From contig JAJTYH010000002.1 of assembly GCA_021463465.1 (NCBI GenBank), forward strand, positions 265,799 through 329,798: a DNA stretch of 64,000 nucleotides, given 5' to 3'. How positions within the stretch are numbered: position 1 is the stretch's first letter; each line of letters opens with the position of its first letter. Positions 42,001 through 45,000 of the stretch are shown here, piece after piece. Made by a program: the position numbers. Origin of the DNA: a bacterium (GTDB lineage: Bacteria > Patescibacteriota > Dojkabacteria > SC72).

Positions 42001-45000
42001 CCTCAGAACAAGAAGTGCTAATGCATACTGAAGGGCACTCGATTCATTAACAGGAAAGTATTCACACGCTTCTTTGGCAACCACGCCAAAGATACTTTAA
42101 ACAGTCAGTGTAAAGCAATTCAGTTTTTCGCCTTAGTAGATACGCTCGCATCTGTTCAGGAGTAACATCCTTAATCTCCTTTTCGTATCTCATTGATGCA
42201 CTTGAGGCAATCTTCCCCAGCTCTGCGTCGCCCTCACGTGGCTCTTTACCCTGACTAATTCTTAAATAATCATCAAAAGAAAAGCTCGGATCTAAATACC
42301 CTTTTTTAACCATCGAATCGTAGTAGTGACTTAAATCACCCCTCCTATCTCTAACTAAATTATTATAAAAGATGCTTCCAGACTGCGGTTGCGCTATTAC
42401 ATTGGCATATTTTCCCTCAGGATCATCTATTTGACATTTGGCTTCTTTATTTGATTGCTCAATAAAAAAGTCTTCATAACTAATTTCATGAAAAGGAATT
42501 GAACTACTTAACAAAGTCCTCTTCAGCGTTTCAATGTAAGTCTCAAAGTTCTTTTGTTTTTTCATTTTTTCAAAGTTCATAATGAAACTAACTTAATTTA
42601 ATAATTTAGGCCGAACGGGAATCGAACCCGTAACTAAAGTTTTGGAGACTTTTGTTTTACCATTCAAACTACCGGCCCAGGTCGGTTGTTCAAACAGAAA
42701 ACGTATTTAGAACAAATGACCTCTCTAATTGTTAGAGGGTCGCCATTGTTCAAAATTTAACATGACAGTCATTTTCTTAATCAATTAATTTATTAACTCC
42801 CATTAATTGCTTAAATCGCACAAGGTTTGTTTGAACAGCTTTTCTCGCCCTATCGGTACCTGCAACAAGTATTTCTTTTGCTTCATCTGGCCTTGATTCA
42901 TAATACTTTCTTTTTTCACGAATTGGTTCTAGGAAACTGTCTAGTGCTTTGAAAAGTTTCTCTTTAACTTCAACATCACCTACAGCCCCATTCTTATATC
43001 TTTCTTTCAAATCCTTAACTTCCTCTACATCCCTGTTGAAGTTATCGTGATAAATAAAGACAGGATTACCTTTTACAGAACCTTTATCAGTAGATTTGAG
43101 CCTATTTGGATCAGTGTACATCGACATAACTTTTTTCTTGAGTGTCTCGCTATCATCTGAAAGCAGGATAGCATTATGTCCACTCTTACTCATTTTTTCT
43201 TTCCCGTCAGTACCTACTAAACGAGCAACTCGTCCTACAAGCCCTTCTGGAAGTGTAAATAAGTTGCCGTATGCATTATTAAAGTCCCGAGCAATTTCCC
43301 TAGCTTGTTCAATTACTGGTAGCTGATCTTCTCCTACTGGAACAACCGATGCATTAAACTGAAGAATGTCTGCTGCTTGTAAGATCGGATAACAAACAAA
43401 ACCTAGAGTAGGATCTATCCCCTTATACCTTATTTCATCCTTTACACTAGGGTTTCTCATTGCCCTTGCATGTGTGACCATGGTTAAAAAATAGCTGTAA
43501 AACTCTAAAGTCTCAGGTACTCCTGACTCCAGATAAATTGTGGACTTCTCAGGGTCAATGCCTGCAGCTAAATTATCCAAAAATACATCGTAAACGTTCT
43601 GATTAATTACCTCTGATTTCTCATAATAGTTTGCATAGGCGTGAACATTGGCAAGCAAGATATAGGTTTCGTACTCATCTTGCATCTTAACTCTATTTTC
43701 CAAAGTACCTACAAAGTGACCGATGTGAAGTTTTCCACTTGGGGTATCACCAGTAAGTATAATTTTCTTAACGCCAGTCTGTCTTTTCTCATTTGCCACC
43801 GTGATATCAGCGATAACATAATTATCACCGATTAATTTGAACAGGTCCATTTTTGAAACCTTAAGAGCGTAACCATCCTTTGCAATTCCGCAGATAACAG
43901 ATTGCATCTCTTCAACTTTTCTATCAACCAAAATTGTTAACGAAAACCGCTCCTGCAACTCATCTAAAATCGCGGGCGAAACCAAGCCTTGTTCGAAGCC
44001 AAGTCGCTCTAAATCTTTATCTTCAACGAAATTCAGGCTTTTACTATTGGATAGTCTCTTAATCTCCTTATTGATTACATTGCGATCATCCCTTCTTAGA
44101 ACAACCACATACTGATTATATTCATTTCGAAAAATCAATGTAGACATCCCCTCTGAGTATTTCATCCCTGTAACTGAAACCAGATCATCAATTGACCGCG
44201 ATTTCGCCGCTGTCTGATCAATCTCCTGGTATGAGATTCCTAACTTTTTAAGTTTTTCAACTATTTTTTGGTATGTAATCACTGTTTTTATACTAAATTT
44301 AAACCAAAAATCCCCACACAGTTAATATACTATCTTTTAGTATACCAACTGTATGGGGACGATGTGGATCGTGGTACCACCCCGGTTCATGTATGTATTG
44401 CTACAAACACCTTCTACTGACTCCTAAGACATCAGTGTGAGTCTTGATTACGCTACTCTTGCGGATTCCCTACTAAGTATTTCCTTTCAGGTCTCAGCTC
44501 CAGGGCCCATTCTCCCCATCAATGCTTTTATTCTTAAATTGTAGTTGATTATACCATATACACCCTTTTCCTGTGATATACTCAAGAAATGGCCAAAAGG
44601 ATTCTCCGAAAAATTTGGGATATTTTCTCATACTTTTTAGCTATTGCTTTCGTAATCTCTGCCACAGTTGTCGCCTATTTCTACGCCAATGGTTACCGTT
44701 TCAACCCGATTAATGGTGAAGTCAGGCAAACTGGAGTCTTAAACATCGAAACCGTACCTAACAGAGCAGAAATCTTCATAAACGGTAAAGATGCCGGAAA
44801 ATCACCAAAAGTTAGTGCAGCAGATGCAGGTGAAGCCTTTGTAAAGATCACCAAAGAAGGATATTTTGACTGGGAAAAAGGTGTTCCTGTAGTTGCTGAA
44901 AAGTCCACCACTATACAGCCTGTACTTTTCCTTCAGAGCCCCCAAACTGAAAGTGTCTATAGCGCGAAAGGCAAAGTTATACAACAATTTCAAAGCACAT

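Follow-up and report, generated by a model that had tools for sequence, protein, structure and literature searches.

The 64,000-nucleotide stretch of contig JAJTYH010000002.1 studied here (assembly GCA_021463465.1, forward-strand positions 265,799 to 329,798; hereafter the window) belongs to a bacterium of the Dojkabacteria and was found to contain a tRNATrp gene with the discriminator nucleotide A73, followed by two open reading frames (ORFs), ORF A and ORF B. These genes follow trpS, which encodes a tryptophanyl-tRNA synthetase (TrpRS) fused to a YbaK-like domain and is preceded by a T-box leader; the T-box, trpS, the tRNA and both ORFs were all found on the minus strand. The tRNA and the two ORFs probably constitute a rare and self-contained cassette, separate from the T-box-controlled trpS, which senses charged tRNATrp twice, at the UGG codon of a short leader ORF and at the UGG codon of a candidate +1 frameshift site between ORF A and ORF B. 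The comparison covered the 64-kb window and the 10-kb flanks of related contigs. The ORF B family is small: 17 clusters were found out of 1.84 billion representatives, and a 5.8-billion collection gave 11 proteins (the metagenome search used a profile from a nine-sequence ORF B alignment), and one relative is a hypothetical protein of candidate division WWE3. The 17 loci fetched for the ORF B relatives formed the cassette set; 16 were read at sequence level and 13 were distinct, nine of them split, with A and B in two frames, and four fused in frame.

The cassette tRNATrp(CCA) (42607 to 42678, minus strand) begins 98 nt past the trpS stop codon. It was found to contain a G1·U72 pair and A73 with no encoded CCA, reading GGGCCGG...TCGGCCT-A-aat, and scored 63 bits in Rfam. 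The housekeeping, secE-linked tRNATrp(CCA) (28065 to 28139, plus strand; Rfam 55 bits) was found to contain G1·U72 followed by the presence of G73 and an encoded CCA, reading GGGCCCA...TGGGCCT-G-CCA. When 12 cassette tRNAs were aligned with the housekeeping copy, 99.3% of the cloverleaf cells were paired and 12 of the 21 pairs showed a compensatory change, a result matched by none of 500 shuffles. Judged by its structure and covariation, the cassette tRNA appears clearly functional. A pseudogene was rejected, as the gene covaries strongly and outscores its housekeeping counterpart; use of another genetic code was rejected, as the ORFs are normal under table 11 and the anticodon is CCA; and an identity of the AlaRS type was rejected, as no G3·U70 pair is present.

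The tRNATrp of archaea and eukaryotes is identified by A73 together with G1-C72, and that of bacteria by G73. Every cassette tRNA that was read (16 loci, 13 distinct) was found to contain A73 and not the bacterial G73. The 1:72 pair of the 12 aligned cassette tRNAs was G·U in eight, including the window, G-C in three and U-A in one, where the archaeal and eukaryotic set expects G1-C72. A second tRNATrp with A73 has been known in Candidate Phyla Radiation (CPR) bacteria since Mukai 2017 (PMC5370408). In one locus (L095), a truncated tRNATrp-like fragment (GGGCGGGTAGTTTGAATTGGCTAGAACACCAGTCTCCAA...) was found about 40 nt upstream of the intact cassette tRNA (481 to 554) and is probably a remnant of duplication or recombination.

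A tRNATrp(CCA) was found just upstream of the ORF B relative, on the same strand, in 17 of the 17 loci. The trpS gene was not adjacent in 11 of these, among which L093 contained a trpS fragment about 5.5 kb away, and in the Dojkabacteria the cassette was found beside two types of TrpRS core (the window type and the P0019 type) which are 47% identical to each other. Fused TrpRS genes elsewhere contained no tRNATrp directly downstream, with none nearby in L002, and in L100 the A73 tRNA was found in a separate upstream operon with its own archaeal-type TrpRS. As far as gene order indicates, the A73 tRNA travels with the ORF A/ORF B cassette rather than with trpS. Three Dojkabacteria loci (L081, L083 and L097) were found to contain, in order, a PEGA gene, the T-box, trpS, tRNATrp, the two ORFs and mreB, and L085 contained the same neighbourhood and T-box without the tRNA and without the two ORFs. 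A dependence of the cassette on the type of TrpRS core was rejected by L097. The surroundings of the cassette were variable (L098, 563 to 4438; L086, 9381 to 12030; L090, 2363 to 3809), and its neighbours included conjugation or type IV secretion system-like genes (TraG-like P-loop, TraC-like and PrgI), PIN toxin-antitoxin pairs and an AbiEii toxin, with NUDIX genes adjoining it in L093 and L096. Such a position in variable regions fits an accessory, horizontally moved element, and the cassette is apparently self-contained, rare and mobile.

Ahead of the cassette tRNA, the window contained a leader ORF (MTVMLNFEQWRPSNN*, the asterisk denoting the stop codon; 42725 to 42772, minus strand) which starts 5 nt past the trpS stop codon and has a single UGG codon at 42743 to 42745, followed by the presence of a terminator-like hairpin (GACCCUCUAACAAUUAGAGAGGUC and then AUUUGUUCU; 42718 to 42741, minus strand) whose 5′ arm begins 1 nt after the UGG and which was kept in 13 loci. 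A leader ORF of 14-17 codons, with the Trp codon 3-5 codons before the stop, was found in the 13 distinct loci scanned and in L098, and contained one Trp codon, or two in L092; other leader peptides were MQDVLIANLFLWRGL, MQGTNVANIFPWQNL, MKTIAIKNTLFWWFL and MKMKYINFKELLWRSY. Together with the leader of three consecutive Trp codons in L100, described below, these 13 distinct loci and L098 were all found to contain the arrangement of an attenuator, a short ORF whose regulatory codon overlaps a terminator. Wherever the leader does not abut trpS, its ATG was found 6-10 nt past a −10-like hexamer (TATAAT, TACAAT or TATTAT), and so short a distance suggests a leaderless mRNA.

The hairpin starts between −3 and +4 nt from the UGG, has a folding energy of −6 to −13 kcal/mol and usually includes the stop codon. 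Its core was found to be CCUCUAAC(A/U)AUUAGAGG, and the base of the stem covaried (AACC/GGUU, UUCC/GGAA, GACC/GGUC), with G·U pairs included; L096 contained a wholly different but equivalent stem, AGCUAC/GUAGCU, followed by the presence of UUUUUAUUU. The hairpins were folded sequence by sequence, the MAFFT alignment of the region being structurally inconsistent. A palindromic DNA operator was rejected, as the G·U pairs in L086 and L089 and the different paired stem in L096 argue for an RNA hairpin. A protein may bind this hairpin RNA.

ORF A (42062 to 42580, minus strand) encodes 172 aa in the zero frame, is all-alpha, and its zero frame ends in ...YL-WRGCQRSV*. ORF B (41224 to 42084 or 42087, minus strand) lies in the +1 frame and encodes 286 aa from a GTG start, with no Pfam hit and no Trp residue. 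The junction was found to contain a candidate programmed +1 heptamer, CUU UGG C (42085 to 42091, minus strand), preceded by UAU. In nine of the nine distinct split loci, [C/G]UU-UGG-N was found in the A frame at the junction, followed by a zero-frame stop 0-8 codons on and by B in the +1 frame; a slippery NUU-U codon in the P site, a slow codon in the A site, an early zero-frame stop and a conserved +1 continuation, which are the features of shift sites of the prfB and Ty1 type, were present in all nine. Four distinct cassettes (five loci: L086, L088/L089, L090 and L091) contained A-B as one in-frame gene of 452-462 codons and no heptamer. The conceptual +1 products of the split loci were colinear with these four fused homologues without a gap, and the homology was found to change frame exactly at the heptamer, which occurs at three or more different positions of the protein alignment. 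In L083 the +1 frame stayed open, and conserved, over 25 codons ahead of the first possible start codon. UGG codons of the cassette were confined to the leader and the shift site. One split locus, L092, contained an extra frame break, which may be an assembly error or decay.

In its functional frame the A-B protein contained no Trp in more than 20 homologues, where about 3.6 Trp residues per protein would be expected at the window background of 0.8%; A-B could therefore be made during Trp shortage. AlphaFold2 (AF2) models, for which the alignments were built from proteins only, reached pLDDT 95.7 and pTM 0.91 for ORF B, and pLDDT 93.6 and pTM 0.85 for a fused homologue of 456 aa. Residues 8-217 of the fused protein, which cover ORF A and three N-terminal helices of ORF B, were modelled as all-alpha, and the remainder of ORF B as Rossmann-type. 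The predicted fold can be assigned with confidence to the catalytic domain of class Ic synthetases (TyrRS, TrpRS) and cyclodipeptide synthases (CDPSs). The class I signatures HIGH and KMSKS were not detectable in A-B, and ORF A and ORF B gave no hits in Pfam, NCBIfam, PADLOC, PHROGs or the PDB sequences. Motifs conserved within the family were CLRYYYD, which follows the first strand, GEQQ, MDHELxRP, SSLxxFGxP, YYRSREFA and PxGAEFD.

A second arrangement of A73 tRNA, Trp-codon leader and Trp-free protein was found in the Shapirobacteria loci L100 and L101. Both contained, at a distance of about 3.2 kb on the upstream side of a gene for a fused YbaK-TrpRS, the tRNATrp(A73)-ORF1-TrpRS-A1 operon described in Microgenomates by Mukai, Reynolds, Crnkovic & Soll (2017, Life 7:8; PMC5370408). 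The order was a WWW leader, a strong terminator, a tRNATrp with G1-C72, A73 and CCA, ORF1 (319 aa, no Pfam hit, no Trp) and TrpRS-A1 (archaeal-type, 388 aa, PLHLGH and KMSGS, no Trp). The leader (L100, 2621 to 2750) has 27 codons with three consecutive Trp codons, MPLMLSKTVSQIWWWNNKPQAGGMVTA*, followed by the strong terminator ACCCGGCCGCUGCCGGGUUUUUUU, and has the look of a classical attenuator; a leader peptide or attenuator was not described for the TrpRS-A operon in Mukai 2017 (PMC5370408). The tRNATrp of the L100 operon contained C33 instead of the usual U33 (anticodon loop CCCCAAA). Two A73-tRNA cassettes thus share a Trp-codon leader and Trp-free products, which supports the window leader as an attenuator, and the logic shared with this operon supports a role in coping with a poor supply of Trp-tRNA. 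An archaeal-type TrpRS-A followed the A-B cassette in none of the 17 loci, and the nearby PF00579 genes were confined to bacterial trpS (upstream in the Dojkabacteria; about 5.5 kb away in L093).

The cassette would be expected to work as follows. The T-box, whose elements were observed, would control the transcription of trpS, and the leader would be entered by read-through transcripts or, in other genomes, from the cassette's own promoter. When charged tRNATrp is scarce, a ribosome waiting at the UGG of the leader would occlude the hairpin's 5′ arm, and transcription would proceed into the tRNA and A-B. At UAU-CUU-UGG-C, with UGG waiting in the A site, the P-site tRNALeu would slip from CUU to UUU (+1), GGC would be read and A-B completed; with plentiful Trp-tRNA, UGG would be decoded and ORF A with a short tail would be the only product. 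Frameshifting and attenuation, which we infer from the conserved sequence features, with strong comparative backing for the frameshift, would both turn the cassette on at scarce Trp-tRNA. A-B would then act on tRNATrp(A73), either catalysing in an unusual way or partnering TrpRS, most plausibly helping the supply of Trp-tRNA, to go by analogy. The supply role is favoured by the autoregulatory logic of RF2, of pheST and of the T-box synthetases, and by the true TrpRS-A in the sister operon; a CDPS-like use of Trp-tRNA is favoured instead by the fold and the lack of ATP motifs.

Several observations weigh against this view of the cassette. The lack of HIGH and KMSKS and of sequence similarity to synthetases argues against a charging role, the hhalign probability of A-B against the TrpRS profile being 0.3%, and for a Trp-tRNA consumer of the CDPS kind, being induced during shortage would seem counter-productive. 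ORF B could be started independently of the shift, in the window at a GTG that stands two codons past the heptamer, and in L087 at an ATG in the +1 frame upstream of the heptamer. No Shine-Dalgarno (SD)-like stimulator was found upstream of the heptamer, unlike in prfB. The genome may carry a second trpS or a TrpRS-A beyond the 64 kb covered. The leader region contained one conserved hairpin only, without an evident competing antiterminator; this hairpin encloses the stop codon, and a terminating ribosome would therefore mask it too. The single hairpin, together with several weak U-tails (L093, L097), makes the direction of control uncertain. A wider proposal, which we advance tentatively and regard as possible rather than probable, is a new tRNA-centred Trp-starvation system, in which a Trp-free protein, derived from the class Ic fold but without its ATP signature motifs, would use a private A73 tRNA to make, rescue or re-route Trp-tRNA. 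Its synthesis would be autoregulated through a UGG +1 hungry-codon sensor, the first natural one in bacteria, stacked on a Trp-codon leader attenuator.

The supply role competes first with A-B as a CDPS-like enzyme that uses Trp-tRNA(A73) as aminoacyl donor, either in making a small molecule with Trp in it or in aminoacylating some other acceptor; the private tRNA would separate the substrate pool from translation. The absence of HIGH and KMSKS, as in CDPSs, fits such an enzyme, and so does the nearly invariant Cys of CLRYYYD after the first strand, which may lie about where the nucleophilic Ser of CDPSs sits. ORF B was found to have a class Ic-like fold without ATP motifs; however, it gave no Pfam CDPS hit and no sequence similarity to CDPSs, matches to TyrRS outscored those to CDPSs, and the helical A domain of 170-220 aa is absent from CDPSs. 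A consumer of Trp-tRNA should, moreover, be neither Trp-free nor induced by slow decoding of UGG, and we consider this use of the cassette unlikely.

Quite unlikely, in our estimate, is A-B as a non-catalytic pseudo-synthetase or adaptor, either a heterodimer partner of TrpRS, as Mukai proposed for ORF1, or a binder or protector of tRNATrp(A73), which would let the host TrpRS charge the A73 tRNA in starvation. Class Ic enzymes are dimeric (Mukai 2017, Fig. 1 legend; PMC5370408), and in the sister operon the Trp-free, pseudo-synthetase-like ORF1 always accompanies TrpRS-A (PMC5370408). The unusual G1·U72 pair shared by the cassette and housekeeping tRNAs of the window would fit one enzyme recognising both. 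Homology of A-B to ORF1 and TrpRS-A1 was, however, not detectable (hhalign probabilities 0.1-0.6% over these two and TrpRS; 0.6% for ORF1), and the many invariant polar residues of B (C, D-H-E, R-P and YYRSREF) resemble an active site and not a scaffold.

The relation of the A73 tRNA to the synthetase bears on the proposal of the initial annotation, a dedicated and possibly orthogonal pair of YbaK-TrpRS and tRNATrp(A73), in which a UGGU T-box senses the A73 tRNA and the N-domain would edit mischarged tRNA. The trpS gene (42777 to 44282, minus strand) encodes 501 aa, an N-terminal YbaK-fold domain followed by a TrpRS core of the bacterial type (42777 to 43787, minus strand; Pfam, NCBIfam) with KLHIGHF, KMSKS and zero Trp residues. 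Pfam tRNA-synt_1b was found at aa 174-451 (E 3e-57), and the NCBIfam trpS equivalog TIGR00233 gave 263.8 bits against a cutoff of 176.75. The window TrpRS was identical to one NCBI entry, annotated '[bacterium]', and 72-75% identical to proteins of Candidatus Dojkabacteria and candidate division WS6, which places the window in a CPR (Patescibacteria) bacterium. Upstream of the trpS leader stands a promoter-like site, ATCACA-18-TATAAT with an extended −10 TG (44548 to 44577, minus strand), followed by the presence of a T-box with an ultrashort Stem I (44352 to 44531, minus strand; RF00230), a UGG specifier (44507 to 44509, minus strand) in the 8-nt terminal loop AGAAUGGG of Stem I, an antiterminator bulge UGGU (44376 to 44379, minus strand) and an intrinsic terminator with a 20-bp stem and a U-run (44312 to 44358, minus strand). 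The T-box scored 63.3 bits (E 1.5e-13), under the gathering score of 93, because of the ultrashort Stem I (a 4-bp stem; 72 model Stem I positions are missing). The T-box sequence motif GGGUGGUACCACG was present and yields the bulge UGGU; the T-box was kept in L081, L083, L085 and L097, where the 4-bp stem showed compensatory changes.

The bulge UGGU pairs with A73 by Watson-Crick pairing and with G73 by wobble only. The proS leader of the window contained UGGU with A73 in tRNAPro, and the argS leader UGGC with G73 in four of four tRNAArg genes. The fused-TrpRS alignment, used as a contig profile, matched mostly non-CPR genomes, which served as a source of comparison T-boxes only; seven of the eight Chloroflexi trpS T-boxes among the matches listed contained UGGC, which makes the covariation of UGGN with the discriminator a sensible rule. 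On these points, as on the second tRNATrp(CCA) with A73 and no CCA (ARAGORN, Rfam and direct reading) and on the 501-aa fusion with a full class I core, the initial annotation was borne out. The pair itself was not: besides the 17 of 17 linkage to ORF A/ORF B, the 11 loci without adjacent trpS, the two core types and the fusions without a tRNATrp directly downstream, the bulge did not follow the cassette, being UGGU with the cassette in the window, L081 and L083, UGGU without it in L085, and UGGC with it in L097. In the window lineage the tRNA does follow trpS without an intervening promoter, co-transcription is possible, and four of four cassette-bearing Dojkabacteria loci have the cassette next to trpS. 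By the pairing rule, the window T-box should pair best with the A73 tRNA, but this would not define a dedicated pair; given also the own archaeal-type TrpRS of the A73 tRNA in L100 and the residues lost from the N-domain, we find such a pair very doubtful.

Among the closest 120 homologues of TrpRS, whether fused or not, a single one contained any Trp residue, a count which extends the remark of Mukai on bacterial-type TrpRS without Trp in these lineages (PMC5370408). Two TrpRS cores, 47-51% identical, were found at one syntenic position of the Dojkabacteria (L085 and L097 versus the window, L081 and L083), their N-domains being 58-74% identical despite the divergent cores, and the window-type core was 74-80% identical to unfused cores among the same matches. 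To judge by these identities, this looks like a replacement of the catalytic core behind a retained N-domain. Two further leaders with a very short Stem I were found in the window, a proS T-box (53596 to 53774, minus strand) with 35.9 Rfam bits, far below the gathering threshold, and an argS T-box (about 57900 to 58030, minus strand) with no Rfam report at E < 0.01; from these low scores it follows that standard annotation may systematically miss the T-boxes of CPR bacteria.

The N-domain (aa 1-165; 43788 to 44282, minus strand) was found to have the YbaK/ProX fold (PF04073), with Ser47 in place of the catalytic Lys and a family-specific R63-R64-D65-D66. Pfam tRNA_edit (PF04073) matched aa 29-149 (E 6e-13; 49.3 bits, cutoff 25.5), covering 118 of 123 profile positions, in agreement with the YbaK-like pattern first read from the sequence. 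In PDB alignments the catalytic Lys of KTL faces Ser47 of MSTLIF (1wdv, VKTLIV; INS domain of ProRS, 5znj, AKTMIF). TrpRS homologues were counted among the best 120 matches; 59 were fused (named sources Dojkabacteria, Shapirobacteria and the Microgenomates group), and the other 61 were cores alone, about 335 aa long and as much as 80% identical to that of the window. Over the 59 fused homologues, the catalytic-Lys column contained S in 40, A in 14, P in 5 and Lys in none. The GxxxP motif was kept in the Dojkabacteria (GLVSP) and missing in 47 of the 59. R64, D66, D120 and G132 were invariant, followed by R63 in 57 and G99 in 58 of the 59.

The comparison of homologues indicates that the N-domain is a lineage-wide fusion in Dojkabacteria and Microgenomates under selection. 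Its pocket, which lacks the catalytic Lys, differs from that of canonical deacylases, and the domain is probably no such enzyme; the editing proposed for it is weakened, and the domain can be called a putative editing domain only. It may deacylate a new substrate or by a new mechanism, or it may bind the acceptor end of the tRNA. TrpRS is not known to require editing, and the ProRS of this genome carries its own INS domain. The fusion is common, and no characterisation of it was found in the searched literature, where the only mention is a figure legend of Mukai et al. noting bacterial TrpRS 'fused with small proteins' (PMC5370408). A widespread and conserved Lys-less YbaK-TrpRS fusion is a good case for studying the role of 'editing' domains on a synthetase not known to edit. 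Variants with tandem YbaK-YbaK-TrpRS (650-673 aa) and B3_4-YbaK-TrpRS (724-742 aa) were also found. An ArgRS of 862 aa with an N-terminal B3_4 domain was found in WS6 bacterium GWF2_39_15, and the window ArgRS (600 aa) contained no B3_4. These additional fusions of editing-like domains with synthetases not known to edit were noted in P0006, P0007, P0040, P0021, P0108 and L083 (1 to 1026).

That A and B involve no recoding, being ordinary overlapping or coupled genes or decaying pseudogenes with a heptamer and an upstream ORF that coincide at low GC, is suggested by the two genes that gene callers give, by the alternative starts in the window and L087 and by the frame break in L092, but is highly improbable against a heptamer that recurs in all nine split loci at differing protein positions, always with a +1 continuation to which the homology switches at the heptamer itself, against the confinement of UGG to this site in these genes and the in-frame homologues without a heptamer, and against a leader ORF that was present in all the distinct loci examined and whose spacing from its promoter is constant.

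Outside these genes, the window contained a 442-aa DUF4135 protein (E 1.5e-21; 49838 to 51166, minus strand), downstream of and convergent with uvrA, which is odd for a reduced CPR genome. An Rfam match to YrlA, a Y RNA-like family (58998 to 59115, minus strand; 37 bits against a gathering score of 69), covers two adjacent tRNAArg genes and is almost certainly a false positive from tRNA-like structure.

The probable cassette, sensing charged tRNATrp at its leader and at its shift site, would have several consequences. If the frameshift is true, bacteria would have in it a natural example of a hungry sense codon that senses by a +1 shift, the RF2 device retuned from a stop codon to a Trp codon. 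The cassette adds to the few bacteria with two tRNATrp identities (G73 and A73) and ties the A73 tRNA to a new family derived from class Ic. Trp-codon leaders and Trp-free proteins offer a regulatory rationale for the unexplained ORF1/TrpRS-A operon, and a pair of G73 and A73 tRNATrp coexisting in one bacterium is a candidate source of orthogonal parts.

With prfB and yeast Ty1, the junction shares the re-pairing of a P-site CUU on UUU at a slow A-site codon, the early zero-frame stop and the autoregulatory logic. The E. coli prfB site reads UAU CUU UGA C and the Ty1 site CUU AGG C; the window and L083 share the E-site UAU of prfB, and the post-slip codon GGC of the window is the same as in Ty1. 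In the cassette, unlike in these two systems, the sensing is done by a bacterial sense codon, that of Trp, and no SD-like stimulator stands upstream. In the 2016 recoding review of Atkins et al., no +1 shift at a Trp sense codon is listed as a natural bacterial case, and whether hungry-codon frameshifting serves regulation is posed as an open question (PMC5009743). With trpL and pheM-pheST attenuation, the cassette shares a very short ORF, a cognate codon near its end, a terminator-like hairpin and the presence of tRNA or synthetase genes for the same amino acid downstream, whereas it usually contains one Trp codon, a single hairpin with the stop codon inside, a leaderless-looking mRNA and a tRNA as the first regulated product. 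The window leader ...WRSL* resembles the end of E. coli TrpL, ...GWWRTS*.

The T-box leaders of the window resemble the actinobacterial ileS-type T-box with its ultrashort Stem I: the terminal loop of this much reduced stem presents the specifier, and the T-box sequence and antiterminator bulge are canonical. The window leaders differ from them in control by transcription termination, in their position on trpS, proS and argS, and in their CPR host, all three scoring below the Rfam gathering threshold. The N-domain aligns over its full length with the YbaK-fold protein APE2540 (1wdv) and the ProRS INS domain, with a Pfam score above threshold, and differs from the YbaK/ProX/INS superfamily in its fusion to TrpRS, the absence of Lys in 59 of 59, the mostly lost GxxxP and the new invariant RRDD motif. 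The A-B protein shares 4-14% identity and no profile-level similarity with CDPSs and class Ic synthetases (TyrRS, TrpRS), and differs in an extra N-terminal helical domain and conserved motifs of its own.

The searched literature gave no description of the A-B family, of the strict tie between this family and an A73 tRNA, of its Trp-codon leaders or of the CUU-UGG-C shift site. The Mukai operon is alike in containing an A73 tRNATrp beside a bacterial G73 copy, a Trp-free class-I-like protein and a bacterial fused TrpRS nearby, whereas the cassette contains no TrpRS-A with HIGH and KMSKS, and the +1 shift site is not part of that operon. Each part of the cassette varies a known device, and the combination and the protein family are new.

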